The notes under the pieces are model-generated. The model did not search any database. It was not told where the DNA came from and worked only from the letters and a program-made list of their open reading frames with translations. 64,000 bases of DNA from Amoebophrya sp. A120. Taxonomy: Eukaryota > Protista > Dinoflagellata. The stretch is from positions 5,870,476-5,934,475 of the forward strand of contig CAJINV010000002.1 of NCBI GenBank assembly GCA_905178155.1, written 5' to 3'. The position numbers were made by a program, and so were the translations under genes. Shown one piece after another: positions 143 through 61,263 of this stretch (its first letter is position 1; each line of letters starts with the position of its first letter).

Positions 143-3100
143 TCAGACAAGCAAAACGTCCAAAAAGTGACACGCAGTTGACACGCAGTTGAGTCCAAAA
201 AGTGACACGCAGTTGACACGCAAAGTGACACGCAGTTGACCACCGTCGTGGTTGTTCCAGTCAATCGACTCCAAAGACCCCCGCGTACTGTAACTTCGGG
301 TGTTGGAGGCGGATGGATTCAACATGTGATATCCGCTGCCGTCGTGGTTCATCAGAGGGATAGCGCTTGTTTTGGTTCCATTCAAGGCCGCACTGTTATT
401 GTCCTGCACGTGCCACGTGAAACAGTTCTGATTCATCAACCTCGTCAAAGTTTTCGCGTCGCCAAAAACGGTGTCGTAGTCGCCCCGTAAATGGAGTTTT
501 ACCAAACTACTCGCAGTTCGCCGCAGTGGTAAATCTTCGCGTCTGGCTGTACTTATGCGCATCGCTGGGGCCCCGCCCCCCGCTGAAGTAGCAGACGCAT
601 TTTCACCTTCTACACCAGGAGCAGTGGCCGTAGTACCAGAAAAATTAACGGTGCTGTTGTTGGTTATGCTGCTCTGGTCGTCATTTTCACCGTCAACATC
701 TCGCCCGGTCGTGGGTTGTGTCGTCCCTAGCAATCTAGTTTTATTCTCCTCGTCATTGTAGTTTATCGATTTCTTGTCCATTTTGGTGGACAGCAATAAT
801 GCGCTTGAGGGCGTCATGGGAGCGGAGTTGGACTCCTTTTCATCTTCCTTTGCTCGTGTCGTTGTTTTTTCTTCGGCGTCATCTACAACTTCTTTATCAA
901 CATGGTCGCCATCTACTTCACTGGGATCTATGTCTCGATCCATATCCTCTTTATTCACTAAACCCGAGTTCGAGGAAATCTGCGAATTCCACCGTCTCGA
1001 CTGCGACGCCACGGAGTTATTTCCGGGAAACGGAAAGTGCACCTGCTCTTTGTAGAATGCCGTCGAGGAGTTCCCCGAGCTTCTCGTCCGGTCTAAGGGG
1101 TGAAAAGAGAGTAAAGGAGCTGGGTTGTTCATATTCTTGCTACTGTTCTTTGTGGTCTTCGTTCTTGTGCTTGCTGTGGTGCCACCGGTTACATCAACTT
1201 TCGTAGTCGTTGTGCAATGACGCGTTTCGTTCTCCAAGCTAGCGATCTCCTTCAAGTCCGACTCCAGCATCAGACTCCCGTGGTAGTATTCGTAATTTTC
1301 CCTCGTCGCCTGCCGTTGCAGCACCCCCCGGCCGGCTGTGCTGTTATTGCTGTTGTTCGTTCCCGCGGACTTGGTCGTGTTCGGTCGCGACTTTTGGATC
1401 GAGTACTCAATCCTGGTAGTCAGCTTCTTCCGTTGGTCTTTCCCGTAAAACTTCGGCAAGAACTTCAGCAGCCGGTGCTTCTGCTTCGGGGGTTCTGGCA
1501 CCAGGTCCTCTCCCGCGTCAGAGTCATTGTCCTGCTTTTGGCGTTGCGACGACGAAGATATTCTCGCTGAGGTGGACAATTTGGAATTCACAGAGGGTGA
1601 ATTCATCGTCGGATCACTGCCGCCCTTGATACCAATCTTCTGGTGGTATTGAAGAGAGAAAGCCGGGACGATAGGGTGTTGGTTTATTTCGATGCGTCTA
1701 GTAGTAACATGCTGGTGCGCGATTTTGCCACGCAAAGAAATTAAAGCGCTGCACACAATACTTGGTTTGCAGCTGGTGAGGAAAAAGAAAAGGGCATGGA
1801 CTTGAATTATGCTATATGCATGAAGTGAAGCGCGTCACGTCTCTCATAACATACTGGTAGAATTAATAGTACGCCTTTCATGCATATTCCGTCACATCTA
1901 GACACTTCGAGTCAGGTGCCGACCCTGCTTAATAATCACCATTTTGATACAGCAGATTGACAGTCGGTCTGCTCGCACTTCCGCTTCGACTGTCTTTCAA
2001 ATTGAAACTTATCCCACGAAAAAAGTGTTACAGTTACACATTTGTAGTGAATGCAGCAACACAAATTTCTCTGCATGTTGAGAGAGAAAACTTGTAGTGC
2101 AGAAATTCTAGGGGAAAACACCTATGAAACGAGGCTTCTATGCATATCCGGCATGACAGAGCTTGCCTGTCTTGCTTGGCCTGCAACGCAATGTGTAACT
2201 GTAACACTTTTTTCTTGCGATAAAACTCGACGCGTTTCCACTACCCGAGCTTCGGCTCGGCGACTCGGTCATAACACTGGTGTTGGCATTCCTGCTTGTC
2301 CTCTCGTCCGGTTGTTGACCATCAGCATCCTCATGATCCCGGTCGGCTCGATCATTTACCGCGAACTTCGCAGCACTTATATTGTTCTCTTTCTCTTTGT
2401 CACCACCTTGTAGTAAGCCACCGTACAGGAACTTCTGTTTCTTTTTGCTCGCCACGGAGCTGGAGGAGTTGGACCCGTACTTCTTGTTCGTCGACACATT
2501 CTCCGGCCAGTTGTTCATAATTCGGTAGAAGTCGTACTCGATGCGGCCTCGCGATTTCGTCCGCCCCTCCGCCTGCTCCTTTTCCGACAACCCAATCCAG
2601 GGTTTGTATACCTTCCCGTCGTTGGTGTACATGCAGAGCTTCGCGTCCTGTTTCTGAAAGTAGCCGTCGTTGGACAGGTTCCGGTGGTGACTGCCAGAAG
2701 AAGTGTTTTGGTGAAGACGGTGATTCATTTTTGGGTGGAACAACGCGGATCGGTCTCCCGATCCCGACGAGTTCCTTCCGCTCGCCGCGAGCGACGATTT
2801 AATATTGTGATCACGCTGTTGTACTGTCCCATCCAGGCCGATCGGAAGCAACGGCGGATCGGTCTGGGTTCTTCGGGTCAGAAGGTTTTTCACGACTTCG
2901 TTGTCATCTCTCCCCAGGATCTCTTCCACGTGGTACTCGTATTCCGCCTGCTCGTATCAAGTGCAAAAAAGTCTGGACCTGGAAGAATGCATGTTTGTCA
3001 TGCTTGTCTGCCATGACTCTTAAATCTGTCATGCACGTTACCCAAGAGCTAGATTTTTTCTGTGATGCAGAAACGCAGTTTGTCATGCAGAATAGGCAAC

Positions 3101-3862
3101 ACCTAGAAGCTCAGAAACTTGTGATGCTGAGCCAGCATTTGTGGCCTCATCATGAAACGCCACCCAGCATCGAAAGTTTCCAGACCCAGACATTTTTACA
3201 TTTGATAGCTCGTACCCGTGCCCGGCGACGACATCCAGCTTCTGGTACTGCCGTTCCTCGTATCAAATGCAAAAATGTCTGGGTCTGGAAAGTTGGAACT
3301 TGTGATGCTAACTTTGGACTCTAAAAAAATCTGTATTGCATGACCAGCAAGAGGAGCCATATTTGTGCTACGCGAGGAGGGCATTTGTCATTCGGAAATG
3401 GCATCAGGAAGCTTTCCAAAAATCTGTGATGCTGGGTCATGCATTACAAGCATCATGGGTCATGCTAGACAAGCATGACAAGCCTTCCATTCTTCCAGAC
3501 CCAGACATTTTTACATTTGATACCTCGACAATGACCTCATCGGAGACTTCGCGCTCCTTCAACTCTAGCTGGGATTCTAACAGTAGGTCGGTCGTGAGCG
3601 AGAGGGAGGTGGTGAAATCTTTGGTCGGCCGGCGCGCTTCAAGCACCGTGTTGGAGAAGTGCGCGGCTTTCTGTTTCGAGGAGGTGCTGCTGGAGGTGTT
3701 GAGTGGAGGGGATTTGGAGGAGGTGTTGTCAGGAGCATCTCCTTGCTCAATACCTCCGCCGCAGTCTGTTTTTTCGGCGAGCTGCCGAGTCTCTGGGTCG
3801 TCGGTCGCTGCGGTGCTGGTCCCGCGACCGAGGGGGAGCTTTTTAGCGGGGCTGGTGGACAT
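143..3862 (-). CDS. Multi-exon low-complexity (Ser/Thr/Asn-rich) hypothetical protein; true 3' end uncertain and may lie outside the window
   Basis: ORFs 3437-3862, 2138-2929 and 143-1756 join in frame after removing elements 3261-3522, 2955-3207, 2010-2222 (each plus 5 nt) and a GT-AG intron 1773-1950: ...EVIVE-ERQYQKLDVVAGHGYE-QAEYEYHVEEILGRDD...GNASSF-NLKDSRSG... No recognisable domain. Confidence 0.7.
158..240. repeat. Short tandem array of G(T)TGACACGCA units with a GTCCAAAAAGTGACACGCAGTTGACACGCA duplication
   Basis: Directly visible; probably intronic, since the ORF 143-1756 translation becomes repetitive here. Confidence 0.75.
1773..1950 (-). other. Canonical GT-AG intron (predicted)
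   Basis: Donor ct|gtatcaa; pyrimidine tract and acceptor ttttctttttcctcaccag|c; 178 nt joins the frames. Confidence 0.55.
2010..2222. mobile_element. Introner / MITE-like intron, TIR family 'TATC-GAAAAAAGTGTTACAG'
   Basis: ~33-bp TIR (tatcccacgaaaaaagtgttacagttacacatt / aatgtgtaactgtaacacttttttcttgcgata); perfect 5-bp TSD AAACT; removal leaves an open frame. Confidence 0.9.
2955..3207. mobile_element. Introner, TIR family 1 (TATCAAATGCAAAAATGTCTGGGTCTGGAA)
   Basis: ~30-bp TIR; perfect TSD GCTCG (2950-2954 and 3208-3212); removal restores frame; no GT-AG pair possible. Confidence 0.92.
3261..3522. mobile_element. Introner, TIR family 1, opposite orientation to 2955-3207
   Basis: ~30-bp TIR; perfect TSD CCTCG; TSD plus TAT end gives a canonical gag|GTATC...ACGAG|gaa intron on the minus strand. 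Confidence 0.92.
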
Positions 3863-6220: not shown

Positions 6221-9200
6221 TCACACGAACCCGTTGATTTTGACCACAAAACCGCAACTCGCAGGAATTTCGATCATCTCCGACCGGGCGGTGTGGATCA
6301 AACTTTTGTCCACCTTTTCCTTGATCTCGAGCTGGAGTTTTTCGTCCGGTGAGATGTTTTTGTTTTCGATGAAGATCGTGTCGTACAGATCCATCCCCGT
6401 TTCGTAGATCGCCCCGTCGAACATCCGGGCGGACTTCAGCCACAGCTTCACCAACACGGGGATGTACCCGTGGTTCTGCACCTCGATGCCGTCCTTCGGC
6501 CCGCCCAGGTGGATGCTGATCCCGCAATCTAGCCGGGCCAGCGTGTGAATGGACGTCCGGCTCGCATCCACCGTGGCGACGACTCCCTTCTCCAAGTAGA
6601 ACTTCAAGTGGCATTTCAGGTATTCCTCCTCCTCCGGCTGGTAATTCTCGTCGTCTTCCGGCTCGGGAATCACGAGTTTCTGCTCCTTTTCCTCCTCGTT
6701 CTTCGGGGAATTGGAGGTTTCCGTGTCGGTTTTCGAGGTGGGTTGCTCGTTTTGAAGATTCTGATTCATCTCGTTCAGATCCTTCTCCACGTCCGCGGTC
6801 TGCTTCGTTGGGCTCTTGGTGTTCGGACTGGACAAGTGGCTGCTGTTGTTGTCGTCGTCCTCATTGTCCAGGCCTAAGAGTCCCAACCCGTCCCCATCGA
6901 GACTGTGGTGAATTAACCCACCATACCCGTACTCATCGCCACCATCTAGTGTCGTGCCTGCAGCTCCGTAGTCAAGACTCGTCCCGGGATCATCGACATT
7001 TTCTGTCCCGTCATCGTTTCTGCTACTATTCTGTCCGTCCCGCAATAAATCAGTTGATTTCTCCACCGCGGGACTCCACTTTTCCTCAGAGTCGTGGGAA
7101 TCCACGGAGTTACGATGGTGCACGACCCCACCGGGCGTGATGTGCGTGTCCGTCTGCTTGCTGCTGGACGGGGTGGCTTTGTTGTTTGTCAATTTGGAGG
7201 ATTTGTTCTTCGGCGATAAATCGTTATCTGGCGATCTGATTGCGCTGTCGTCGACTGCCTTGGAGGCAGATTCGTTGTTATTATTTGCGGTTTGTTTTGA
7301 AGAGGTATTGGAAGGAGATTTCACCATGTTCTGATCGGCCACTTCGTCGGGTACTACACCAGCGGTGGTTTCTTCTGGATTGTTCATTTTGCTGTGCGCG
7401 GGACCGCCACTTCTACTGCTACTTTCGAAGTGGTTCGCGTCGACATCCGTTATCTCCGTGTTCACAATCTGTACCACTTCCGGTGGCTGCAGAGCCAGTT
7501 GCTGCTCCTTTTTCAACCTGCGTTCCGCCTCCCTTTCCGCCAACAGCGCCTTGATCTCCGCCTTTTTTTCCGCGATGTACGCGTTCCGGTTCTCTTTACT
7601 CGCCACGAACGGCACCTGGAGACACAACACCTGCCCAGGCCACAACAAAATCTCCTCGCTGTTCATCCGGCTCGCGGACGTGATCCCGCCGAGGACCAAT
7701 TTTGTCATCGGGTGGGCCGACATTACTAACCCGACCGTTTTCTGCACAATCCCGTCGTAAGATTCAAACCGAAGCGTGACGCACCGGCAGGTTTGGTTGC
7801 AGATCAGCACGCGCCGCCGCGTCCCGTGAAGGTAGGCGGAAATCTGGGACTCAAACTCGCTGTGCCACCCGTTCATCTGATCGAGGCCCGTGTCGTAGCT
7901 ACCCTGCGCGAGCCCCCGGCTGACCAGGGTGTGCGGCGCCGTCAAACAGTACCCGCGGCGCTCGATCACCTGCACGAGCTGCTGCTCGGGAGACGTCGGT
8001 GGGCGCTTTGCAGTTTGCTGGTTCTTCTGCTTGCTGCCGGTGTTCAATGCCACTTCACCCTCGGGGCTTTTATTTGCAACTGCGGCTTTGCTCTTACCTG
8101 CAGGGGACGTAGTTGTCGTTGCTGCGTCCTCAGTCACCTCCTCAACCGCGTCCTCGAAGGTGTCACTCCTCAGTTTTTCCATATCAATCGGCACGACGTT
8201 CATCTGCTCTATCCTCGTTTCCACGACCGGACAGACTCGGTTCCGCAACGATTCGACCGTTTGGTCCTCCAACAGCAAAAACCGCATGTCGTCGCTCATC
8301 CACAGCATCACATTCGAAATCGCCCACACCTCCAACGCGCCGGGCAGCGGCATCACCAGCCCGGCGGCGAAACCGAGAACCGAGTGCTGCACCTTCCCCA
8401 GGAAGGACTCCCCGGGGATGTGGGACAAATTCGCGTGCAGCTGCTGCTGCTTCACCTCTTGCTGTAGTTGTGCGGGGGAAGAGGAGTTGGCGTCTCCTTG
8501 TTCTTGCGCGGTCGTCTGATCTTCAGGGTCATTTTGAAGAATCTGGTCTCCCCTGGGGGAAAAAACATTTGGGTTCGACAATCCGTCGTCGCTGTTCTCA
8601 TCATCGCTTTGTTTGTTTCCGTTTTTCCGATCGCGGACAACGGCGCGATTGCTTTTCTGCTCGCCATTTTCCCCCGCCACAGGATGCGCGCCGTTGCTAT
8701 CCAGCCCCGCGAGACCCGCCCCGTCGCCGGAACTGGAATTCGCGCGGATAATGTTGCTCGCGTCGTCGTGTTATCCTGTGCAAAAGTTCTTGTATCGGAG
8801 ACTCGTAGCAAGTGATTGCGATTTTGCATCACAATAAACGTGTTGGTGTTCATCTTTACCTTAATCAATCTGCATGAGAAATTTCATTTTGTCTCTGTGA
8901 TTCAATCACGACCACTAAGCCACCTAATACGATAGAACTTTTTGCAGCAATGCATATGTATTCCATGATTTGGTCTTCTGGCACGACCGCAGAGGGGGAT
9001 CTTTGCACTGCGATGGCGGGAACCACTGAAGTTGTGGCTCCGCTAGACACTAGGTCGGTATTCAGCTGCAACAGATTGTTTTGCTCTGTCTCGCTGTTAC
9101 TGGTATTTATCCCTACTAGCTCTTTCGAGCTCTGTTTTGACAAGTTCGTCTTCTCACTCACCACCCCCTTCGCCACGGCCGTGCTGTAGGTTTTGTTCGT

Positions 9201-17360: not shown

Positions 17361-20300
17361 CTACAGCTCCGCCCTTGTTCTCATCTCCTCGTCCTCTTCA
17401 TGGCGGTGCAGATTCTGTAATTTTCCGCTTTCTTCACTTCCTGTTCTTGTTACCAGGTCGGCTCTTGTGAAAACTTTTTCGTTTCCAACCGAATATCCTA
17501 GATCGTCATACCCTTGCACAACTATCGCTTCTAGGAACCCCTGTTCCAACGAAGACAAGTCCGTCGATTTTAGGTGATAGACGAAAAAATTCCTACCCCT
17601 ATTCTCCGTCTTTCGCCACCTTTCGTGATACTCCAGCCGGTGTCGTCTGTTGTTGTCGAAAAAAAGCCTTCGCTTCCCGTCCTCGGAATACCGGTAGCGC
17701 AGTTCGATTGCGCCCAGGATAGGATGACTTTCTTCACCCGCGGTGGTGTCGCTGGTTACTGTTCGGAGTTCAGCTCGCTGTGACGAAAAATCTTGTGTGG
17801 CCTTTCGCAACGTGAATGTGAGGGTCAGATACTGATCCGATTCATCGATCTTGTCGCTCAGTTTATCCGTCGCGACGACTGGTTCAGCAGAGGTAGTAGA
17901 TTTGTTTTGGCCATCGCTCGAAGGAACTTCATCCATTACCCTGTCCAAGACAATCTCGTACGCAGGAACTTCTGCTGTCTTCTCGTCCGAGGTTCTTTTT
18001 TCTCTTGTTCTGTCTGCCGGTACCGCTAGTCTCAGGCCTTCGTAGCTCTCTGTCAACAAAGTTCCCGGCTGCACGTCCCCCATGTCCGCAAACAAATTTA
18101 CGACCGCTTGCTGCAAATTTCGCTCACCCGTCACGCCGGCTGCCAAATCGCGGCTCACCCGCGTGCTCTGCTCATTCTCCCAGCCCCGGGTGCCGGTAAC
18201 GCGGTCGTGAAAACTGTCCAGGGCCCAGGAGTACTGACACGTACCCGCGGCGAATATGAGGGATGAAGTTGAGGGTGGGGGCGATGAGGAATTTCTAGCT
18301 CCGTGGTCCATTGCAGTATCGTTCCACGCCCTGTGTTGCTTTCTGTGCAGCGTCATGGTGTGCGTGAGGGTGGTCGAGTCTAAAATGCCACCGTAGTCCA
18401 GCAAAGTGTGAACATTGTGGATTTTGGTTTCGGATAAGTACACTAACCCGGGAGGCCGGTGGCCGTTGTCGACGTCTACATCCCACTCGTGGCCCAGAAT
18501 CCCCTTCAAAGGAACGGTGGCTATCAGACCAGCGGGGTTGCTTCTCCTTCTTGCATCGGAGGAGCTGCTCGCTGATTTATCAAGTTTCTTTGAAGGTGCG
18601 GAACTAGAAACAATGGCTCCTTCCCGCTTATCAAACTTCATCGCAAGCTCCGCGATTTCGGTCCCTCGCCAGAACGCATGCAGCCCAAATTTCTCCACCG
18701 GTACCTCGAGGGGGTCGTTGCGCAGCGCGTTCGCAGCCGTCGACAGGCCAGTTAGCGCGTTTTCCGGATACGGCCCATCTGGCTGGCGTGGATCGCGAAA
18801 CGAACCTGTCCAGGGCTTTGTTGCTTTAGAAGTTGTAGAGCTAGTAGTTGGCGATGGCGACTTTGTGCTGGAGGCTGCGGTATTCTTAATATGGTCGTCG
18901 CTTGCATCCACCTCTCGTTTCGCTGCATCAGAGGCCGATGAAAATTTTAGCGACGCAAACTCCTCCTTGGACATCTGGGATTCTTTCTCGATGACCAAAA
19001 TATCCAGATCGTCGTCGCCGTCGTCTTCCCCCGCCGTGCTGTGGATCGGTTCAGCCTCTCTACCAGCTTGATCGTAGGAATTTCTAGGCATGCTTTTGTA
19101 GTACTTCGAGCTCTTTTCCCACGCGTGAGTCCAGAAAACGTTGTTGCCGCTGAAAAAACCCAGGTGCCAGACGACGTTCTTCTTGTTTTGATGTCGAACA
19201 GTGTCATTTGTATTTTGGCCTTTGCCCCTAGAACTAGATTCATCACTTGTATTATCACGGACTTGAGCTGTAGTTTCTTGGACTCCCGCCGTCAACCGTT
19301 CCACGGTTTGTCTCTGCTGCCTACTCCAGTACTCGTCGTGTCCGACAGACAGGAAGATTTTTCCCACGGTAGGCAAGGCACGTCCGGTTGTTACAACTGA
19401 TTTTGCATTGCCTTTATCAACATAGTCATCTTCCCCGTTGTGAGTGTGATCGCCTTGTTCGCCGCGCGAGGTGGATGGCATCCTCCCGGCCGCTGCAAAT
19501 CGCCCAAACCCGCGGCCGCCCAGGTGCGTATCCAGGCCGGACACGTAGGTGACCGCGTACCCCTGGGCCTCGAGAAACCGGATCATGGGGTATTCTGAGG
19601 AGAATACGGAGTTGTAGAGGGACACGTCTCTGGTGATCAGTGGCGTGTTGTAGGACTTCCGCAGCGCGCGGTAGTCGTGCGCGGTCAGCTCCAGCGGGTT
19701 TTTCTTCGTGCCGGAGGTCAGTATGCTAGAAGAAGATGCAGAGGGAGAAGCAGTTGATGTCAAGGTTCCACTTCCACCAGCAGAAGGGCTGTTGTTGACA
19801 GGAGAAGATGATCGCTGCTGACTTTCCTTGTCCGACATTTTGATGTCGTCGCCGAACGGGGATTTGGCGTACCCGAGAAAATATGCTGAAGATGCGCAAA
19901 AATATCGCACTCGCAGAGCCTGAAACCTTGCATGACAGACACAAAGCCTTACCTCATCAAGCAGGATTACAAACTTTACACTGACTTTTTTATCATTTTG
20001 AGGTCATGCCGCGATGTTCATTCATCACTACAGCACGAGATACGACATTTTTTTGCGAAGATTCATAAAAAGTCGTCCGGCGTCTTCCACCAGGTGGTAA
20101 AATTGTGGTGGGGACAGTTGAACTGCGGCGTGCGGCCGTAGGTATTGGGACTATCGTATACGTTATACGCCAGCCAGGTGGTATCACTCGTCTGAAATAC
20201 GAGATCGTAGAGCTCGTGGCTATCGTCCTCGTCCGCCGTGCGGACGACGAAATACGCCAGACTCGCGTACGGCTCGTGTAAAGCGGTCTCTAGCAGGCTT

Positions 20301-44694: not shown

Positions 44695-47600
44695 TCACTG
44701 ACTCTGCACGTGATAGAGGCGGAAATCGTTCGCGTTCTGGTAGTATCAAGTGCAAAAGTGTCTGGGTCTGGAAGAGTCGTGCTGTTTTTGCATGACACAG
44801 AAGGTCTGGCATGGAAGCTCTAGCATCACAGGTTTCGAGAAGCTTCCGCATCGCAATGCCGAACCCGCACGACAAGCCCCCCATTTTGGTTCCAGAAAGT
44901 GAGCAGCTTTTGCTGCCTATGCATGAGAGATTTCTCTGTGTGCTGAAATGCGCATCACAAGTTTGTATTCTTCCAGACCCAGACATATTTGCAATCCATA
45001 GGTAGTTGCTCGCCGAACCATAGCTGTTGACGTGCGCCGCCTGCTATCAAATGCAAATATGTCTGGGTCTGGGAGATTGCGAGATTTGTCATGCTAGTGT
45101 GGCATGACTCTGAACTCTGTATTGCGTGGCCGCGAAGAGCTCTTCTTGTCTATCATGAAAAAACGCGGTTTCTCATGCGGAGTACGGAACTCAGAACCAC
45201 GAAAAAACTTGTCATGCTGGGCAGCGCATTACAGTGCGCTGACTATTCCCTTTCTTGCATCACAAGTTTCCAGACCCAGACATATTTGCGATCCGTACCT
45301 GCCCGGCAATAGGCTCCTGGACCATGTTCCTGCGCCGGTCGTCATCCTTGGGCGGCTTCCAGCACAGGGCGGCGACCAGGACGAAACAGAGGCAGATTTC
45401 CAACAGCGTCAGAAAGACCAGGCTATGCGTTGCAAATTATATCGAATTAGTTTTTCTTGGGTCGTCGGGAACGTAAATGGAAATTGTGACAACCACCGCC
45501 ACCACACATATGGTTATAATAATCTGTCTCACAAAAACAAATGAAAATACCAACCTGTCAGCACGGTAGAGCAACAAAGGCTCTGCTCTGGTGCCGCGCA
45601 GAGACAGAGGGGTTCTTATGCAGGATAGGCATCTTGATCTTTTTCAAATAGTAGTCGCGCTCAACCTGGAACAAAATTGCAGCTCTGCTATGCATTGCGG
45701 ACATCGTGCTGTGGTGTGTGATTGAAAACCTGCATGACAAGAAATCGCTTACAATTAATTTTTTCGACCCAAACACCGATATTTGCGACGACGTGTCTGA
45801 CGTGATACAGGTTGACCGTAATTTGCGACGTTTGCTTGTGCAAAACCGCACGGAAAACTTCGGTATCAAGTGCAAAGGTATCGCACTGCGTATAAATCGC
45901 AACATAAATCAATGCTTTCAGAAGGGAAAATCATGGAGATGCTCGTGCCTCTATATGCTGGTTCAGGTAAGAGTTACAATTTAGTACAGTTACGATACTT
46001 TATTTCCTGCAGTGCATATTCAGGGGTGATCGTCACGTCGGGCGCAAGCTCCACGAGCAGCACGTCGGTGAGAAATCGCTGATAAACTTCCGCGAAGTTG
46101 TCCGCCAGGCAGTCCGTGTAAGTTTGAAGGAAGTCCAACATCGAGACGCCTTGGTATCAGGTAGAAAAATAAAACCAAGCACAATACCGTCGCTCTCTGC
46201 GAATTCTAGTACGCTCCTTTGCTATCTTCAAATACGGCTAGATGATTGCTATTCCTTTTTTTTCCAGATGGATTGCATCAGTGCATCGTCGTACGTGCCC
46301 GATAGTATAATGCCTTTTCTTCTTCATGTGCGCATGACAGCAGCAGCGACGGTAATGAGGGAAGTCCTTTTCTACACCATATAAACCAGATGCGCTGTGA
46401 TGGTGAGAAGAAGATTAGGTTCTGCATGATTCGTCTATGTTTTCATCGCAATTCCACATTATGGAAGATGTGCATCGAAATCGATTTTGCACTTTCTTGA
46501 AGATCTTTGACCGTGTAGTTGTGCCACCGACTGTTACACGACCTTGTTTTGATGTTAAAAATCGAACGGATGAACAGGAGGTGCTGCGCAATGGTATATT
46601 TATAAATTGAAATTGCATCAATTAAACTTGGTTGTACGTAGATCCCACTCCCTACGTAGATCACGAGCAGCACGAAGACGAAGGGAGCAGCCTTTTTCAT
46701 CTTGGCGGACGCGGATCCAACCAACGCGCAGACAGTCATGACGAGGAAAAGCAAGGCCGCCCACTTGAGTGCTGTGGTGATTTCTCGGAGCAGAATCTCA
46801 ATGGGCTTGGACAGCACCTCCTCGTGGAGCCAGGGCGTCAGCTCCGCCGCATTACACGTGTCGCTGAACTTATCGTGAGAAAAAAGCGGCTCACTGTAAA
46901 GTAAGGATTTTGCACGTTTTGCATTACAACTTCCTTACATATGACAAAGCAAACTTACCATGCGTACTTCCTAAGGGAAAACACGCTGAGAAACCCAATG
47001 TCTTGCATGTGTAGCAAGACAAATGAGTATGCGTTGCATTCTTCTATGCATCACAAGTTTATGTTTACAGTGAAACAGTTTTTTCTTACGATAGAACCGA
47101 TTGAGTTCACTCGCGACGTGGTACTGTTCCCACTTTTATGCACCGCAAATATGTCGTCACGTGGGTCTGGGAAAAGAATATTACGACCAAGGATCTGTAT
47201 AAATAGTGCGCGTTTCGAACGACGCCGAAAACTGTCATGCACGAAGCGGGTTTGCAATTGCATCATGCAGAAGCAGATGGACCACGAATTCTATATTTAT
47301 CATATGCAGGTAAGTACGCAGTGTGTACTACCCTTCAAAAAATTTGTGATGCTTGGACAGGTTACTGGAATTCGTTATCGTTTCTTCGGTGTCACCGGGA
47401 GTTGCGACGGACTAGCGACCAGACCTTGACATATTTGCCGTGGATAACTTTTCGATGATCACCGCGTAACTCACAGTGGTCAAGCACAAGACCGAGAACA
47501 AAGCACCGGCCACAGAGTATGGGACTCTCAAGCGGTACATTGTTCGCTGTTACATGATTATTTCTTGTCATGCAGAATCACTGTCGCACTTGTTCACACG

Positions 47601-47889
47601 CCCGCGCTATTTCGCATGGCAAGTAGAAGTTCTCCACCTACTAACTAGCATTGGAGTCACCTACTCCGACTTCAGTGCCCAATCTATGATCATGCAAGGA
47701 AGACGGCGCGCAAGTTCCCCAGTTACAGTTTCCCTTTTGCTGGTCCTGCATAGCAATAACACGTAAAATCAGCGACCACTGTAACGTTTGAGAGTTGTTC
47801 ACCCATACAGAGACGCTATGGAAACAGCCAAAGGCGCCCAGGAAGAGGTGCCGCCAGTCGGCATTGGGATTGCAGCAACAGAGCACCAT
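44695..47889 (-). CDS. Multi-pass (about 4 TM) membrane protein of unknown family, paralog A, ~11 exons
   Basis: Reconstruction: MVLCCCNPNADWRHLFLGAFGCFHSVSVAGALFSVLCLTTVSYAVIIEKWEQYHVASELNRFSDTCNAAELTPWLHEEVLSKPIEILLREITTALKWAALLFLVMTVCALVGSASAKMKKAAPFVFVLLVIYVGSGIY-RIWFSVSMLDFLQTYTDCLADNF...TITPEVFRAVLHK...YYLKKIKILVFLTLLEICLCFVLVAALCWK...YHVQSQ*. Frame stays open across nine element removals and one GT-AG intron. Confidence 0.75.
44744..45000. mobile_element. Introner, TIR family 1
   Basis: TIR; perfect TSD GGTAG; closely similar along its length to 50118-50379 and 56819-57076. Confidence 0.92.
45045..45297. mobile_element. Introner, TIR family 1 (2955-like)
   Basis: TIR (right end decayed to GTA); perfect TSD CCTGC; can be read as GT-AG on the minus strand. 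Confidence 0.9.
45424..45627. mobile_element. Decayed introner, probably spliced as GC-AG (45423-45630)
   Basis: Ends tatgcgttgcaaa and ttatgcaggata; the frame requires element+4, which matches at|GCCTATC...CATAG|c. Confidence 0.65.
45689..45807. mobile_element. Highly decayed introner candidate
   Basis: tatgcattgc...gtgata ends, internal gcatgacaa; +5 restores frame; alternative GT-AG intron 45666-45816 also fits. Confidence 0.5.
45864..46018. mobile_element. Introner, 59582-like family
   Basis: tatcaagtgcaaaggtatcg / tacgatactttatttcctgcagtgcata; TSD TTCGG/TTCAG; joins TITPE to VFRAVL. Confidence 0.82.
46155..46381. mobile_element. Decayed introner candidate
   Basis: tatcaggtagaaaa / ttttctacaccata IR; TSD lost; +5 restores frame. 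Confidence 0.55.
46395..46637 (-). other. Canonical GT-AG intron, position shared with paralog B
   Basis: tac|gtacaa...ctaatcttcttctcaccatcacag|cgc (branch-like CTAAT plus pyrimidine tract); removes the in-frame TGA at 46443. Confidence 0.65.
46871..47093. mobile_element. Introner, 2010-like family
   Basis: tatcgtgagaaaaaagcggctcactgtaaa / tttacagtgaaacagttttttcttacgata; TSD GAACT/GAACC; joins LNRF to SDTCNA. Confidence 0.85.
47137..47446. mobile_element. Introner, diverged family 1
   Basis: tatgcaccgcaaatatgtc...ggtctgg / ccagacc...gacatatttgccgtggata; perfect TSD ACTTT. Confidence 0.87.
47518..47807. mobile_element. Introner, 'TATGGGACTCTCAA' family
   Basis: IR with an indel; perfect TSD CAGAG; end homologous to 56498-56739; joins FHSVS to VAGALF. 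Confidence 0.87.
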
Positions 47890-49369: not shown

Positions 49370-52044
49370 TCAGGACCGGTCCTTGACGTGCGGATGCGTC
49401 CAGTACCCTTTAATATCATTTCCATGTGCAACAGCAGCACGAGCAGCTACTCCGCCTCCACCTGCGGGTCCGGCATGCTCCCTTACCGTGTGGGGAAATG
49501 CGTAGTACTGGTCCGGATGGCCTTGATGTTCAACCTGAGAAGTGGTGGATGAGTAAACCGTCGTCGTCGCGGCCGGAAGAGCTGCAGTGCCGCCAGCTTC
49601 ACTCGTCGTGCCGACAATCAGAGGCTCGCATTGCTCGAAAGTGGTCTGGTCTTGCACCACGGTGACGACTTGTTGATTCTGCTGATGACCATACCCGTAG
49701 TCGTAGTACTGGTGCACGTTCACGTCCTGCGGCTGATACCGCGCTCCGTGAAAATCATGCTGCTGTTGCGCCATAACAGGCTGGTGGACGAGAATGTTGG
49801 TTCCGTCCTGGCTGTATCCTGCGCAAAAGCACTATCGCACTCGTATTGTCAAAATTGCAAGCTTGTTGGTGTTCCATCGTGAAACTTGCCTTCTTTATTC
49901 CTGAAACGGAATGTTGACACATTCAATAATCCAGTTAGTCATCGATTTGGAATCTTCGGAACTACAACAACAAATTGTTCATACGTAGTTTACGATAGTT
50001 TGCAATGCGTAGGTCTCCGGCTTCAGGCAACTCCTTCCTGCCGCAGCACTTGGCCAAGAGCATAATCGGCACGGCCCAGACCAACCCCTGGGACAGAAAG
50101 TGCAGGAAGCCCCTACCTATCAAATGCAAAAATGTCTGGGTCTGGAAGAGTCATGCTGTTTTTGCCTGACGCAGAAGGTCTGGCATGCAAGCTCTAGCGC
50201 CACAGGCTTCCAGAAGCTTCCACTATGCTGACTCCGCATCACAAATCCGCCATTTTGGTGACAGAAAGTGGGCAGCTTTTGCTGCCTAAGCATGGGAATG
50301 GGATATTTTTCTGTGTTCTGAAATGCGCATCACAAGTTTGTTTGTATTCTTCCAGACCCAGACACTTTTGCAATTAATACTACCCCCCAAATGCCCGGGC
50401 TGGGCGAAGAATTCCAGGATGTACCGGGTTTCTTCGGTATATCAAAAGGAAAAATCCCCCCTCCCCATATCAAAGTGGAAATCTGTGACGCAGGATTTGC
50501 GTACACAAATCGGATTTGTCTTGCGGTGGAGGACTGCAGACAGACACAAAGCCCGGAAAGGCGTGGCTTGGGGTAGGTACTTAGCATGGCAGACGTCTGC
50601 CCTAGTAGCGTAGCAGCATTACAAATCGCCTGCGAAATCATGCAGCGGAAGCCCTGGCGTTGCTCTCTTGCAAGACAGACTCGATTTGTGGCCACAAATC
50701 AGCATCAAAAATTTTGAAAAGCACGCCTTTTCGATATGGGGAGGGAGAATTTTTCCTCACAATACGGTAGGCGTCAAATTTGCGGGAATGTGCATCCCAA
50801 ACAGAGCGGGCCCATTCGCGATAAACCAAGGGAGGACCACGTCCATAATGGTATCAAAGGAGTATTTGTCCGAGGCACAGGGCGCCCAAGCTTCGAGAAC
50901 TTTCGCAATCCACACGTACGCGAGAAAAATCTGATAGATTTTTTTACGTTTGGATGGTGAACACTTCATCTCACGAGTTTTATTCGCTCATATGTCAAAG
51001 GAAAACGACGCAAATGGCGTGACGTCGAGAGTAAGCAACATTCTACGCATGGCGTTACTGGTCTTCACTAGGTCTAGGTCGAGAGAAGATCGAGCGGAGC
51101 CATATTGCATCTAATTTATTACGTAAGAACAATGACATTATTCTTACCGTCACTCCCAGCGCGACGTAGAGCACCAGTAGAGCAAACACCGGCCACCAGG
51201 CTTTCTCCATTTTCCGACTGGGTTGTGAAAGTGCACAAATCCCCCTTTCGTGGTCCTAATTACGACTCCAGCAGCAGGAGACGCTGTTGCCTCTCAGGCC
51301 ATGCTGTAGTCCCATCTGCCACGCAAGAGCTACAAATTATGACTATGTCTTCTGTGGTTTCTGATGCTACTCAAGATCTCCTGCCCGAGTCAACGTCGAA
51401 ACGGGGCTAACAACAATTGACGAGTGGGACGACCACTAGTGGGAGTTCTTGTGCACTCTGATATACCCGCACCGACATTCGCGAAAACTGACATGATGAC
51501 GGAAACGGCGAAGCCCGCGCAGAGGAATTTTTGCAGCATAACGACGAGGGCGTGGCGGCTCTTCGACAAGACGTTGTTCCAGATTTGCGGCGTGATTTCC
51601 GAAACGTCGCAGTCGGCGTCGAAGTCCCGTATCACGTTGATCCAGGGGAATCTTCGGCCAGGAAAGTTGATGTGATCATGTGAGTTCTTTGTGAATCATG
51701 CGTGGCGGTGAATTAATATAATACCTTCTGCATGACAAACAAGTCGCTGAGCGCTTCGTCGACGTGCACGACAGCACTGAGACTAGCTCTACAAGAAGCT
51801 TCCATTCATCTTATCTCTTGCCCACATCGACGAAATTTTCTGCAACGCATACGTAAAACGACTGCGCGATCCTATTGCCGTCCAGCAACACCGTGCTGAG
51901 CAACGGTATGGAGAGGAAATGAAAACTGGTTTCGGTCGTTTTGGAAATGGGTTCTTGGGCACGAAAGCAAAACATCATGCTGCACATAACGTTTTGCCTG
52001 TCACTAGTACTAGTAGTAGTACTACTACGACGCCCGCAAGGCAC
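49370..52044 (-). CDS. Multi-pass membrane protein of unknown family, paralog B, ~7 exons; start codon uncertain
   Basis: ...FHFLSIPLL...RDFDADCDVSEITPQIWNNVLSKSRHALVVMLQKFLCAGFAVSVIMSVFANVGAGSRKMEKAWWPVFALLVLYVALGVT-IFLAYVWIAKVLEAWAPCASDKY...LTPTEETRYILEFF...GFLHFLSQGLVWAVPIMLLAKCCGRK...DQDGTNILVHQPVMAQQQ...; aligns by eye with paralog A. Confidence 0.75.
49815..50011. mobile_element. Decayed introner, 8772-like family
   Basis: tatcctgcgcaaaagcactatcg / tacgatagtttgcaatgcgta; +5 joins EAGD to QDGTNIL. Confidence 0.75.
50118..50379. mobile_element. Introner, TIR family 1
   Basis: TIR; perfect TSD CTACC; a GT-AG reading is possible. Confidence 0.92.
50440..50764. mobile_element. Introner, inverted homolog of 42043-42364
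   Basis: TIR; perfect TSD CGGTA; joins LTPT to EETRY. Confidence 0.92.
50931..51147 (-). other. Canonical GT-AG intron, position shared with paralog A
   Basis: acg|gtaaga...ctatcag|att, phase 0. Confidence 0.75.
51224..51463. mobile_element. Decayed introner
   Basis: tgtgaaagtgcacaa / ttgtgcactctgata IR; +5 gives VGAGSRKM, the same length as VGSASAKM in paralog A. Confidence 0.65.
51676..51852 (-). other. Intron with one introner-like end (GT-AG 51687-51852 or decayed element)
   Basis: tac|gtatgcgttgca end as at 25940 and 45424; internal gcatgacaa; both readings restore frame. Confidence 0.5.
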
Positions 52045-54516
52045 ATTAATAAAGCTGCTTTATCATGGTCTGCTGTAGTGTTTCGGCTTCGTGCAAGTAC
52101 CGGGTCCAACATGACAAACAAGTTTCCATTTGATTTCCATACGCCCCCACAGCAACAGGGCGGACAAGGCGTGGGAGAAGCCGAAGCACCCGATTAACAG
52201 GTGCCGGAAATCCGCCTTCGGGTTGCAGCAGCAGATACACATTTTCTCGGAGTTGGATTTTGTTTCGGAGGTTTGGAGTTGAAAAAAATTGTGTACTTAC
52301 TCAGAGTGTTATTCGTGTTTTTGTTGATGCTAGCTTTGAGTATCAAAGGAGAAAAGCCGTCACTTCGGCTTCGGTCACGAAATAAATTTATACTGAAAAG
52401 CAATGACACGCAGGGTTTAGAAGAGGAGGCCGATGAAACAACAAGTGGACGTCTTGCGACGTGCAGCTCAACGTTTCTCGAAGGTGATGTGGCAGTTCAA
52501 AACTAAGACTAACGATGAAGTAGTGGGACGCCAATCAATACCAGTTCGAGAAGAGTAGGCACTTCTTCATCCAACTATATGTCGCGACAACAAACACCGC
52601 TAGAAGCCGGCCAGAAAAAATAGAAAAGAGAAGACACTAGACATAGTGTTTCACATTGGTCTTGATGGTCGCACGCACGCACGGAGGATCGATCTCTGGT
52701 GTCTTTGTGCTAATTATATCGCGGATCGGCACAATCACAAGAAACAATACACCCATCAGATGCTTTATGCGTACAGCAACGGCAACTGGATCACAATCAT
52801 GATCACTTTGAACTGGCGAAACACGCGGCGACTATCTTCCATCTATGAGGGGATCCTCTTTCAATACACATTTTCGCGAGTCAGAGTCTGCGACATAGAT
52901 TGACTCCACACACGACACAGCCACACGGAAATAAGTGATAGCGCGGTCTTTCGCTTCTTTGTGACCATGGGGCAGCTGCTACCCTGCCCTCCTGCGAACA
53001 GGCACGCACGGGCCGTGGCGCCGGCCCGGGCCGGCAACTATCTAGCGCCAGCGGGATGGCACATAGGGGGGCAGGCAGACTGGCAGGGCCAAAGTGCTGG
53101 CGTGGCGGCGCTGCGACGATGGACGAACGGACGCCACGGACTTGGGCAGGCACCCACAAAACCAACGGGGCGGACGGGGCGGAGAGAAAGCCCCCACACC
53201 CAGGGCCTTCTTTTCCCCGTCCCGCGCGAAGCAAAGGCGGGTCTTGTCGTCCCTAAAGAAATGACGTCTATATTTTCCACCAAGTGGATCCCGACAGACT
53301 ATAAAAAGGATCGGCGACGACGCAGGCACGCGCGTCCTCTACCTTCGGCAACGTGTCGCCTTTCTGGCACGTCGACACTTCGCCGGCCGATTGTTTCGCC
53401 ACAATGCGGAAAAAAAAAACCGACCCGACCACAAGCACGGCCAGACTCTTTGGGCGTGATTCTTTGTCTTCCTCGCTCCACTTCCGGCAGCTGGCCGGCT
53501 GCCCCACATACAAGCAGGCACCCAACGGGGCCCCGCCCAAGCGCAGCGGGCGCGGCCGGCCTCCGGGAGGAGGCAGGCGCGCCGCGGGCGTGGCGGAGAG
53601 GAGCCGCGCCCGGGCCTCCGCCCAAGGTGCGACGCCGCCCGCCGCCCGCCCAAAGCGGCCCGGCGCGGGGGCGCCACTACAAGGCGGACCGCTGGCCCGC
53701 CCCGGGCGCCGGGCTCACTATCTGCCGGGCGGGGGGCCGGCGCTTTAGATGGGGGCGCCGCGCTCGCGCTGGGTTCACAAGTAGCCGGGTCCACACGGGG
53801 CTCGCGAGGTCGGTCGAGTGTGTGACAAACATTTGGCGGCGCAGGCGACTGCCTGCGCAGCGGTGCGACCAGGGGGCGCAAGCGACACCGGCCCGAGCGG
53901 GCTGCCGCCCAAGCGAGGCAGGCAGGCGGGCCCCCCCAGCAAGTCCAAAGGGCCTCAGCGCGCGCGCGGCCGGGCGCGCGCCCGCCGCTCTTGCCATTGG
54001 CGGCAAAGGTAGGCGCCCCGTTGCGCCCGGCTACGTTGCTCCAGTGATTACGGCCGGCGCCCCGCGTAATGAGCCGGCGGCTCGCACCACGCCCCGCCCC
54101 GAGCGGGGAATTGCAACACTGCCCGCGCCCTTGGAGAGCTGCCCAGCCGGCGCTTACAGGGGCGAGGCGCCACCGCCTTCGAGAGTTGGCACACTTACTC
54201 GCTTCGCCCTGGGTCTTTTTCGTTTATTATCACGTCGACACACCATTAGGATTCACATTCAGAACCTCATACACTCAACAAGAGCGAATAAGCTCGTTGT
54301 AGCAGGTCGGTCCGTATAACGTCTAAAAGAATTGAACAAATACTCCACCGAAGGGGCTGCGGTCTGGCGTCTTCTCTTCTGTTCATGTTCAGCATAATTT
54401 TTATATCCACTAGATCACTAGCACTACCATACTGGGCTTCAAAAAGTTTCCCCGTCGAGCTTCAAAAAGTTTTCCCGTCACACGTCCAAACTCATTTCAA
54501 CCCCCACAGCACTCTC

Positions 54517-56314: not shown

Positions 56315-58260
56315 CTATTGCAAGTCCAGCACCGCCATCTTGTTCGCCAACTCATCCGCCGAAGACAGAAGTGAGTAAGGACACTCGTACTGCTTCATTA
56401 TGGTCGAAAATTTACTCTCTTCCGCCGGGAAGTCGTTCGCCAACGAGTGAGTGTACTTTGCAAGGACCACGGCGGCTTCGAACACCTCACAACTAATTAT
56501 GGCGTTCTCAAATGTTATATTCCCAACTGTATACATGATTTGTCATGCACAATGAGCATCAAGGTCCACACCTGGAAGCTACCTCGCATGACAAATTTAA
56601 GAACAGGAAGGGTCAAACAGCATGGGAATCTGTGCCGAATTTGTAATGCAAGAGTTGCGAGATTCGGCATTTCCCTGTTGCCATTCTTGCATCACAAATT
56701 CATGCAACAGTTGAGAATGTAACAATTGAGAGTCCCATACTAATTTCCACCACCTCGGTGAACTCGAAGTAGTGCGTTGTTGCCGAGTTTTTCGCGGTTT
56801 GGATCTTGTAGCACACGTTATCAAATGCAAATATGTCTGGGTCTGGATCTGGAAGAGTCATGCTGTTTTTGCATGACACAGAAGGTCTTGCATGGAAGCC
56901 CTAGCATCACAGGTTTCGAGAAGGCTCCGCAATGCCTAATCCGCATCACAAATCCCCCATTTCGGTGGCAGAAAGTGGGCAACTTTTGCTGTCTATGCAT
57001 GAGAGATTTGTGTGAGTTCTGAAATGCGCATCGCAAGTTTGCACTCTTCCAGACCCAGACATATCTGCATTTGATACACGTCCGCCAAATCCGACTCGTG
57101 GGCCTGGTTCAGGGCTTTCCGTAAACTCGCGTCGGAAGGACGCATGCGGGCGAAGGTCGACGGCGACTTGAAAGCAAGAGGGATTACCTGAATTTTATCA
57201 ACAGGCCGTTTTGATAGCATCTTTTGGTCAACAAGCGGTCAAGCTGCATCGAGGTCATGATTTCCAACAGGACTTCTACACTCAGCATGATGACATCCAC
57301 ATTACCTTCTAAAGGCAGAAACACACCATTTTTTACCACGTCTTCCCAGCTTTCCCCGGAATCCTCCTCGTCCAAATCGTCTGGATTAGGTTTGATTTTC
57401 AGCAACAACTTCTTTTCTCTCGTATTTGACTTCTCCTCGTCTAACACCAGCCACACATCCGCCTTGCCCAAATGCTCGCTGTTTGAACCTTTCCCACTTG
57501 GAGGCCCTTTCTGCTCCCAGAGCTCGCCGCAACAGAGCAGACAACTCGTACACCTGCCGAATAAGAACTCCTGTAATAACCGCTTTGCCTTGTTGTAAAT
57601 GGTCGTCGTCACGCTATTGGAGTACGCAAACGGCGCACCCTGCTGGACGCGTTTACAGAGTTGCGGCTGCACGGAGAGGGTTTGCAAACCGAGGTTGAGT
57701 AGAGAGATCACCGCATTGAGCTTGGGCAGCATCTCGGCGATCCGCTCTCGCCTGTCCTTCCCGTCTTTCTTCGTCTTTAGCCACTTCGTCCACGATTCTT
57801 TCGAATCGGGCCGCTCGTCGTCCTCATCCGAGCCAATGTCGAGAATCTCCTCCACCTTGCGGATCTGGAAACGGATCAGCTTGGTACCTGATAGATACGA
57901 TAGGTTTACGTTCATACTCGGTTCGAAATTTCGCACAGAAGAACAAGCTGCGGATAGTACTTGAAATTTTTCACCCTCACAACATCAAAAACAACAAGAA
58001 AAACATTTATCTTGATCATCACGCAGCGCTGTAAAATATCAGAGAAAAATACTCGGCAGCAAGAGCGGCAACGCCTCCTCTCTTATCAGTAGTTTCTCCG
58101 CAACCTGGACTGGGATTGTCAAGGCTTCCAAGGTCTTCCAGAGCACATATCCCTCCTCCTCCACGCCGTTGAAGGATTGCAGGAAGTCGATCGCCCGTTT
58201 GGTCCCGGTGGCCACCTTAAAAATCGCCCCGGCCGCAGCGGAGACACCGAACATCGCCAT
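56315..58260 (-). CDS. Hypothetical protein with N-terminal helical domain, 5 exons
   Basis: ORF pieces join through GT-AG introns 57888-58052 and 57188-57336 and introners 56819-57076 and 56498-56739: ...ESDLADV-CYKIQTAK...FTEVVEIS-CEVFEAAV... Confidence 0.75.
56498..56739. mobile_element. Introner, 'TATGGGACTCTCAA' family
   Basis: TIR tatggcgttctcaaatgttatattc / gaatgtaacaattgagagtcccata; perfect TSD CTAAT. Confidence 0.9.
56819..57076. mobile_element. Introner, TIR family 1
   Basis: TIR; perfect TSD CACGT. Confidence 0.92.
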
Positions 58261-58809: not shown

Positions 58810-61263
58810 TCATTTTGTTTTCTTTTTCTTCCGTGCACTAGCATTTTTGTTGTTTTTGCTTCCAGGAGAGGCAGTTTCCTGCAGAAGTAGATCCTCGTCT
58901 TTCATTTTAGCTGAAATCGGGCTTGGTAAGAAACGACCCGCGTGTTCAATTTGTCGCTTTTTTGCAGACGATGAAGATGCAGCAGAAGTCCCACCTCCGG
59001 GTGTACTAGTTGCGAGGTAGTGAACCCCCGACCTGGCGCTGCTGACGAAAGGCGAATGATGATCTTCCAGGCCTTCCTCTTCCTCGTCCCGGTCGCCTGA
59101 AAAAAGAGCTCCGTCGTCGCTTTCTGGACCCCCGCGTGCTGTTCCTGTCTTCCCAACGTTCTTGTGTCCCTTTCCCTCTGCTCCGACGTGCAACAAGCTT
59201 CCGCCGAGAATTGCGAAGACTAACCCGAATAAGTGGTACCAACCGAAGACTTTCGGGAAGATAACGTAGGACAAAGCGAAGGTTATCATCTTCCTGCACC
59301 CACAAATCGCGTTTGTTCTCGCCGCGTCGTACTCCTTCGTGATTTTAAAAATGATTCGCAAGCCCCAGAAGGACAGGAAATTGTCGAGGAACATCAGAAT
59401 CAAAACCTTGTTCCCAGTTTGCATCGGAATTCCGAGTCTGAAAATTGCCGGGTTCGAGTCGTGCGGCTTCGCGTAAAAGAAATTCTGCAATCTCGCGAGG
59501 TAACTAGATGAACTGTTTTGGAGGTATGTTGAATCTCCTGTCGCGACGAGGCCGGAAAGCAAGTAGTCCTTTCGGACTTCGTATGCAATGCAAAAGCATC
59601 GTACTAGTATAAATTGCATTACAAATTGGCTTAGCATTACAAATTGAATTTGTATTGCGGATTTGCCTTAACAGAAAGATCTGTAATGCATAAATGCAAT
59701 TAGTACGAGTACGATACTTTTCTTGCAGTGCATACTTCGACGCCGAGAAAATCGTCCCAGCTGAACCCTGCAAGGGTCAAAATATCCAAGAAAAAAACTG
59801 TGTTAGTTTAACTTTCTTTGGTTGGCAGCGTCACAAATTTGCTCTACATGACGGAGAAAACCTGTCATGCGCGGCTTGTAAGGGAAAACACACATGAAAA
59901 GAGGACTTCATGGTTGTCTGGCATGACAGGTGTAACTCCGTTGCATGTTCTGCATTACAGAGTTTTTACACTTACACAGATTTTTTCTTGCATACGACAC
60001 CCGCTCACTGTACCAGTAGTACCAGTTCTGGAACTCATTTGCGAACAGCATGGTGTAGCAGACCAGCAACACAAATCCGACGGAGTACTGGATCATCATC
60101 AGCAGATCTACTTCGCGACCTTTGGTAGAAGTAGTAGGTTGCGGCGCACGATGTTGACTTGCGGCTCGTGTAGCAAAAGGAAAAGCTTGTGTCTGTTTCC
60201 TCTTCTGCTGCAAAAACACCTGCTGAATGTTGACGCCAACGGATGCGCAGCAGATGTTCAACAGCATTAAGGCCAGGCCGTAGATGGAAAACCTGGGGGA
60301 CTCGAACCGCTCCCCAACTCCAAACACGGTGAGACCGAAGAAAACAGATAGACTGCCGATGTATTCCTGAGACGTGATAATCTTCTTGTTCGCTTCAACA
60401 TTCATCTCATCGCTCTGTCGCCGTCCAGATGAAGAAAGGACCATCCCGTACAACCGCCTTCCCAGCAGAATGCAGGGGACTTTTGCGCTCTTGCACATGG
60501 CTCCGAAGGTGAAAGATAAATGTTCGAAGGCGGAGGTCCCAGCGCCATGCGAAATCATCAGTAAAACGCCGGAGAGGAAGGCAGGGTCGTGCTCTTCGAC
60601 TTGTAAGATCGAAGATGGAACTCGTGTTGCAGTTGTAGAAGAGGGCGAGCTCTGCTGATTTTTTGCTAATGTATGTGTAGTGAGTTGTGTTGACATCTTC
60701 CCTTGATGTTGTATCAAATTTTTGACGAATGTCAGCCTGTTCCAGACGGATTTTCGCACCGCGTAGTTCCATTCATCCCAAAAACCTCGGTTGTTCCAAT
60801 TGCACAACGGGATCAACAAAACGTACAAACCGAACTCAAACAAGCAGTAGACCCACCCGAACCGGAAACCGTCGTGTTGGAAAACCGCTTCGGTAAGCAG
60901 CGCCGCTTGCCCGTGGAAGAGAAACACGATGAACGCGAGTTGCAGTAAACGAACAGTGCGCTGGTGGTGGGTTGATGGTGCTGCAACAGCTGCTAAAGAA
61001 TGAGAGCAGCTCTGCTTGGCAGTTTGCGTAGTGAGCGATTTTGTACTAGCTTTATTAGGCGGAAAAAAAGCCATGTTTTTGCTGCTAGCTGCACCTCCGG
61101 TGGGGGTCTGCTCGCGTCTTCTTGAGCGGTGCACCTGTCTTGCGCCACCGGTTGTACCAGTCGTGTTTTTCGCAGTAATTTGAGTTGCCGGGGAGGAGGC
61201 TGAGGCGCCCTGTGGCGTACCGCGCTTGCGCGCTTTCCCGTGGCCGTTGCGGGTAGTGGACAT
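58810..61263 (-). CDS. UAA-family nucleotide-sugar/PAPS transporter (SLC35B3/PAPST2-like), 3 exons
   Basis: Multiple TM helices; FRFGW, MCKSAKVPCILLG, SPRFSIYGLAL, KEYDAA...RKMITFALSYVIFPKVFGWYHLFGL. Joined through 59783-59994 and 59582-59734 (each +5): SERVS-TLAGFSWDDFLGVE-VRKDYLL. Confidence 0.85.
59582..59734. mobile_element. Introner, 'TATGCAATGCAAAAGCATCGTACT' family
   Basis: TIR; perfect TSD CTTCG. Confidence 0.9.
59783..59994. mobile_element. Introner, 2010-like family
   Basis: tatccaagaaaaaaactgtgt / acacagattttttcttgcata; TSD CAAAA/CGACA decayed; +5 restores frame. Confidence 0.8.

Follow-up and report, generated by a model that had tools for sequence, protein, structure and literature searches.

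How tens of thousands of introners of Amoebophrya sp. A120 move without a recognised transposase stands as an open question in the passages of Farhat et al. (PMC7789003) considered here, and a 64-kb stretch of the A120 genome (contig CAJINV010000002.1, positions 5,870,476 to 5,934,475; hereafter the window) bears on it. Elements with terminal inverted repeats (TIRs) in this window share a short internal word, TGTVATGC, which a preliminary description had taken for a common cis-signal, either the binding site of one shared transposase or a mark for non-canonical splicing. Our analysis argues that TGTVATGC probably marks phased subterminal sites at which a single mobilising protein, common to the families, binds. 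Two jobs of the elements are thereby separated, with the internal sites likely serving mobility and the paired ends likely serving splicing. A common word with strict spacing implies one mobilising factor and provides a specific bait and specific mutations with which this factor could be sought and examined.

The window elements fit the published A120 introners, which have TAT…ATA ends and a 5-bp target site duplication (TSD). In the relevant passages of Farhat et al. 2021 (PMC7789003), the A120 introner repeats consist of TAT, seven variable bases, and at least three A. We found inverted repeats of this form, short direct repeats at the boundaries, 15 repeated non-coding families of 4 to 59 copies, and RNA removal at non-GT-AG boundaries in 14 of 16 joined introns (contigs, one sample). 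TAT was imposed in the wider TIR search; however, an unbiased repeat search of the window recovered TAT…ATA inverted repeats with 5-bp duplications unprompted. A single metagenome scan with a TIR pattern gave 146 loci, of which the first 73 were used and merged into 62 stretches (452,587 bp), while 73 short loci (47,846 bp) were left out of the expanded set; the 73 listed loci all belong to a single assembly, and the bait family is over-represented in the sample. The window and these 452,587 bp together yielded 353 candidates, of which 325 were kept (at most 420 bp, at least three of five TSD matches). The TSD was 5 bp long in 204 of 266 strong-TIR pairs and 6 bp in none. Beyond the imposed TAT, 94% of the element ends have C or G at position 4, 75% have G at position 9, and 77 to 92% have A at positions 11 to 14. 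The TIRs are therefore related at their core, and the earlier view that they are unrelated across families was wrong; the end core is common to them, as Farhat et al. describe for A120. Decayed copies become longer, not shorter, with a mean gain of 34 nt in the bin richest in indels, suggesting an insertion bias. Two introner copies in one metagenomic stretch (L066:1099-2070 and L066:6001-6496) carry long inserts with A-rich-tract ends beside a motif site, and the insert in the former seems to duplicate the adjoining motif site, resembling a retroposed insertion.

In the window, TGTNATGC occurs 60 times on both strands compared with 7.23 ± 2.71 times in shuffled sequence, and a count of 60 was reached in 0 of 100 shuffles. 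The recurrence noted in the preliminary description is thus borne out, and TGTVATGC is present at all six places where it had been located. Most sites (54 of 60) fall within TIR elements or relics of them. The 17 intact TIR elements (4,356 bp) all have a site and together hold 48, compared with 1.3 expected. Ten decayed elements, two of which were chosen only after the motif had been noticed in them, hold 6 sites compared with 0.6 expected. Persistence in decayed copies is partial: four of the eight RNA-joined decayed introns lack an exact site. The two GT-AG introns of the window have none. Long minus-strand open reading frames (ORFs; 33.8 kb) have 3 sites with 3.0 expected, and the remaining 23 kb of non-ORF, non-element DNA has 3 with 2.9 expected. 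Exons are thus at background, with no sign of the scarcity that had been suggested; one background match, at 46849, sits in an RNA-joined exon. The matches at 24451 and 25207, in unassigned non-ORF DNA, could be relics or due to chance.

Exact TGTNATGC is present in 316 of 325 element interiors, making it the most widespread gapped 8-mer, and is carried by 290 of 292 copies across the 15 families. Over 1,280 sites, the variable position is C in 687, G in 339, A in 232, and T, which is avoided, in 22. The fuller form of the motif is approximately AAYYTGTVATGCW, with TGTNTTGC as the chief variant. In all 15 families, the motif columns are more conserved than the other interior columns and than the TIR columns. 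With motif and TIR masked, the interiors of only 9 of 105 family pairs are more similar than all 100 shuffles, while in 96 of 105 pairs similarity is not above that of shuffles.

The sites also follow a spacing rule, which is common to these mostly unalignable interiors. Based on 29 representatives and same-orientation gaps of up to 70 bp, 27 of 44 such gaps are 31 to 33 bp, the first inward-facing site lies 32 to 34 or 40 to 44 bp from the element end in 32 of 40 cases, and head-to-head offsets are 15 to 16 or 45 to 49 bp in 21 of 29; phasing of the sites at 10.5 bp is strong (R=0.78). When one representative per related group was used, the 31- to 33-bp gap was found in 11 of 12 (null mean 1.2, maximum 6 in 5,000), the end-distance rule held for 15 of 18 ends, and the head-to-head rule for 11 pairs. 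None of 5,000 random placements matched the observed gap, end, or head-to-head values. The roughly 24-bp spacers between sites vary among families, and 9 of 30 consensus ends have a degenerate version of the motif within the TIR, at offset 2. The elements thus have the layout of a subterminal array, i.e., a repeated motif at a constrained distance from the end.

When selection acts on the motif can be read from trees of 10 families built without the motif columns. The rate of change at motif positions, relative to other interior columns, rises from 0.21 for internal branches to 0.47 for terminal branches and 0.70 for the shortest quartile of the latter. Copies with an intact TSD have 2.6% mismatches at the motif and 4.8% at control columns, while copies with at least three TSD mismatches have 10.4% and 11.3%, respectively. 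The gradient in branch rates and the TSD bins fit filtering during transposition followed by decay and may point to selection on the motif during transposition, but a weak excess retention in old copies, described below, runs against this; the split-half decay ratio was 0.53, with a wide interval of 0.19 to 1.3. Because the TIR cores are related, a deep common ancestry of the families is likely, and the word has outlasted its surroundings. However, ancestry alone is insufficient to explain the conservation of the motif.

For the RNA side, we used contigs from four runs (X1 to X4) of one sample, which were taken as RNA because precise joints are seen. In region 44300-52300, there are 15 listed joints; as one of them bridges a pair of introns flanking a 12-nt exon, they define 16 introns, 14 non-canonical and 2 GT-AG. 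One further joint lies outside these 15. In intact copies, the element and one TSD copy are removed, e.g., 257+5 bases at 44739-45000, and joining yields minus-strand ORFs of 312 and 406 amino acids. The exact motif is present in 10 of the 14 non-canonical introns and missing from 4, and in one of the 14 (45859-46018) a site is missing even when one mismatch is allowed. In depth bins over three motif-less introns, 11 of 12 run-bins had a contig depth equal to that expected from the exon portion, and these three introns have no intronic contig depth in the bins covered. End complementarity is significant in three of the four motif-less introns; in the remaining one, at 45859, it has a p of 0.08, yet the ends fold together (z −1.85). 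In contrast, introns 45419 and 51648, for which retained-intron contigs are listed, have the motif and damaged ends. Because contigs lose rare forms, these data demonstrate that splicing without the motif is possible and do not speak to its efficiency.

We could assign a gene direction to 203 of 307 elements. In RNA orientation, 37 of these have UGUNAUGC alone and 32 have GCAUNACA alone, whereas both forms are present in 130 and absent from 4. Motif positions are mirror-symmetric about the two element ends. A required splicing signal should be found in a single RNA orientation (37 versus 32 here) and in every spliced non-canonical intron (10 of 14 here); such a role for the motif is not supported. 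A branch-point reading was rejected on the neutral RNA orientation and the symmetry about both ends. Thus, of the two functions initially proposed, a required mark for non-canonical splicing does not fit the neutral orientation, the precise joining without the motif, and the relaxed constraint on recent terminal branches. A common cis-signal under selection, conserved in 15 of 15 families and obeying one spacing rule, holds up without it. The shared-transposase option gains from spacing, conservation, and strand neutrality, which all fit it, although no transposase was found among the 161 ORFs scanned and we infer binding from these patterns.

We suggest the following mechanism. The sites would be bound in duplex DNA by one protein common to all families, predicted to be the transposase or an architectural partner, and all families would need this protein to move. 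Protomers might occupy sites separated by approximately three helical turns (31 to 33 bp), and the first site that faces inward would lie three or four turns inside the end. The bound sites would help unite both ends so that the element is cut at TAT…ATA and inserted with a 5-bp duplication. Fewer daughters would descend from copies whose sites are damaged, so that the motif would be conserved in source lineages and decay after insertion. RNA removal likely relies on the paired ends and the TSD rather than on the motif. Two observations make an integrase-type DDE enzyme a reasonable candidate for the protein: the TSD is 5 bp long, and an A120 TIR element (family 38) whose homology is integrase-like is reported in the relevant part of PMC12130899; however, no named superfamily matches in both ends and TSD. 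We speculate further, while considering it quite unlikely, that all A120 introners are mobilised via a single phased code by one protein that belongs to none of the annotated transposase families and was perhaps domesticated by the host. This protein may also stay bound and aid intron recognition of new inserts; if so, intron birth would be coupled to intron removal. Long TIR-bounded stretches were insertion-carrying copies or composites. A viral scan with the TIR pattern gave 0 matches, and 40 viral end-plus-motif matches, none with a convincing partner TIR or family similarity, were rejected as chance.

Several observations weigh against a shared mobilising protein as the explanation. Pfam identified no transposase in 161 ORFs (24 from the window and 137 from the loci, the longest of 402), and Farhat et al. 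(PMC7789003), in the passages on mobilisation, find none in A120 and argue against general transposase-mediated mobilisation. The motif sites are spread through the whole element rather than confined to its ends, and in two 150-bp families (25702-25863 and 59582-59734) the end sites face outward, opposite to those of the longer families. The spacing windows were picked on the same data, inflating significance, but the margins are wide. The rate ratio on the shortest tips, 0.70, falls short of 1. Sites lean to one RNA strand (317 versus 264, p=0.03, with non-independent counts), and the RNA evidence consists of contigs of one sample. Finally, comparing the motif with its neighbours in old copies, a check advocated from the start, showed it to be slightly better kept: 37 indel-rich copies retain it at 0.878 compared with 0.833 at equally invariant control columns (p=0.038), and they hold 101 intact sites compared with 52 under a naive model. 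For this comparison, copies were reassigned because low-score hidden Markov model bins mix decayed copies with sister families. The motif may thus have a weak value after insertion.

Such a value would suit a host DNA-binding or chromatin protein, rather than a transposase, as the factor that binds TGTVATGC, with the elements gaining, e.g., accessibility or protection. This explanation is unlikely, though not negligibly so. It would predict the same spacing and strand symmetry, it agrees with the weak excess retention in decayed copies, and it would dispense with a transposase, which is neither reported for A120 in the passages of PMC7789003 nor found among the 161 ORFs. However, the fixed distance to the cut end (15 of 18 ends) ties the motif to the end reaction, and the 23 kb of other non-ORF DNA has no motif excess. 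The motif core also fits V-A-T-B, the context of N6-methyladenine (6mA); against this version, a frequent variant replaces that A by T (221 sites).

The same excess retention in old copies, together with the presence of the motif in 10 of 14 non-canonical and 0 of 2 GT-AG introns, could be accounted for by a pre-mRNA splicing signal or enhancer that is read either way or loaded during transcription. We find this improbable: either RNA strand suffices, intron 45859-46018 is joined precisely with no site at one mismatch or fewer, the retained introns 45419 and 51648 hold the motif but have damaged ends, and spacing in multiples of approximately 10.5 bp suggests duplex DNA. The idea that the motif simply survives, without selection, from a single ancestral repeat shared by descent has very little probability left. 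The shared TIR core and TSD length, the interior similarity retained in 9 of 105 family pairs, and the degenerate motif found at offset 2 of some consensus ends (9 of 30) would all follow from it; yet the spacers have diverged while word and spacing were kept, and the column conservation in 15 of 15 families and the five-fold slower motif change on internal branches largely refute it. A shared mobilising protein that binds the phased sites therefore remains our preferred explanation.

The window features on which these analyses rest are as follows. Outside the RNA-joined region, TIR elements are located at 2010..2222 (5-bp TSD; motif at 2151, −), 2955..3207 (2996, 3027, 3061, 3081, and 3120, all +), 3261..3522 (3301 and 3425, +; 3441 and 3473, −), 39636..39915 (39668, 39747, 39780, and 39830, all +), 42043..42364 (42181, +; 42313, −), 56498..56739 (56541 and 56642, +; 56586 and 56689, −), 56819..57076 (56871, 56904, and 56943, −), and 59783..59994 (59863, +; 59921 and 59952, −), with a diverged one at 25940..26308 (25981, +; 26263, −). 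The 150-bp families are represented by the TIR elements 25702..25863 (25744 and 25775, −; 25813, +) and 59582..59734 (59616 and 59634, −; 59682, +) and by decayed copies at 8772..8956 (8826, −) and, with approximate bounds, 19877..20035 (19930, −).

In the RNA-joined region, all introns are on the minus strand. TIR elements are 44744..45000 (intron 44739-45000, including one TSD copy; motifs 44790, 44823, and 44952), 45045..45297 (intron 45040-45297; 45087, 45210, 45226, and 45257), 46871..47093 (intron 46866-47093; 46921 and 47048), 50118..50379 (intron 50113-50379; 50236 and 50327), and 50440..50764 (intron 50435-50764; 50616), and 47137..47446 is a diverged one (intron 47132-47446; 47233 and 47345). 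The decayed non-canonical intron 45419..45807, which also has retained-intron contigs, carries a single motif at 45732; position 45689, listed initially as an element, is internal to this intron and not a start. Other decayed non-canonical introns are 47512..47806 (motif 47566), 45859..46018 (precisely joined although it lacks a site when one mismatch is allowed), and 49810..50011 and 51219..51463, both without the exact motif, with ends still paired and precise joining. The copy at 51648..51852 is truncated, with one TIR gone, a motif at 51730, and retained-intron contigs, while 51903..52142 is a non-canonical intron with paired ends and the motif as one-mismatch variants only. No family was assigned to the non-canonical intron 46151..46382 (motif 46332), which adjoins the 12-nt micro-exon 46383-46394; this exon lies between a non-canonical and a GT-AG intron in all four runs. 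The GT-AG introns 46395..46637 and 50931..51147, which served as controls, are without the motif. The adjoining minus-strand genes 44300-48102 and 48474-52300 look paralogous by eye, with CCCNP in both and differing intron positions. Based on Pfam, further minus-strand host genes encode fibronectin III (11524-14505), DMFA2_C (17364-21259), DnaJ (23911-24336), alpha/beta hydrolase (26136-30284), UCH peptidase C12 (54520-55449), UAA transporter (58813-59667), and TPR (62170-63999) proteins. The intergenic stretches 4380-5100 and 52970-54200 are very GC-rich, unlike introners or exons, and the ORF 53342-54223 has no Pfam match.

While the elements are already known, we found no description of the internal word and its spacing, in line with the initial impression that the motif had not been described. 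Neither appears in the passages of PMC7789003, PMC12130899, PMC9860276, and PMC11282704 or in the supplement text covered; the part of the PMC12130899 supplementary table that was covered has no motif matches. In the passages of PMC2836005 and PMC10045372 on integrase-related transposons, TDD-4/5 (Ginger2/TDD) make 5-bp TSDs and Ginger ends are TGTNR, IS481EU has TNT..AYA ends and TSDs of approximately 4, 15, or 25 bp, and IS3EU/GingerRoot have TA..TA ends, with 6-bp TSDs in GingerRoot. None of these groups combines TAT..ATA ends with a 5-bp TSD. Membership in Ginger1/Ginger2 was rejected because the termini are TAT..ATA rather than TGTNR, and membership in IS3EU/GingerRoot because the TSD is 5 bp rather than 6 bp, although TA..TA termini fit.

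Among known systems, the non-conventional introns of Euglena resemble the A120 elements in that splicing seems to follow paired terminal sequence; however, the code tested there, in the sections of PMC12501133 concerned, is terminal (CAG/CTG), whereas TGTVATGC lies internally and was not needed in the cases seen. Other DNA transposons are known to carry subterminal arrays of transposase sites, as the relevant passages on piggyBac/piggyBat (PMC11707139) describe, and both these and the TnsB repeats of Tn7 (in the corresponding part of PMC9308760) share with our elements short repeated motifs inside the ends, constrained spacing, and a presumed multimeric synapsis. By analogy, a motif-bound protein may organise end synapsis in the A120 elements. 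Unlike in the piggyBac and Tn7 arrays, one word is common to many families with divergent TIR bodies, and the sites span the whole 110- to 330-bp element and have no known cognate protein. Finally, the elements share with the A120 introners, as portrayed in the passages of PMC7789003, the TAT-N7-AAA inverted repeats, short direct repeats, non-canonical splice sites, co-oriented genes, and a length of approximately 240 nt. They differ from that account in the internal motif and its spacing rule, neither of which those passages describe, and in that the motif speaks for a single, shared factor behind their mobilisation.

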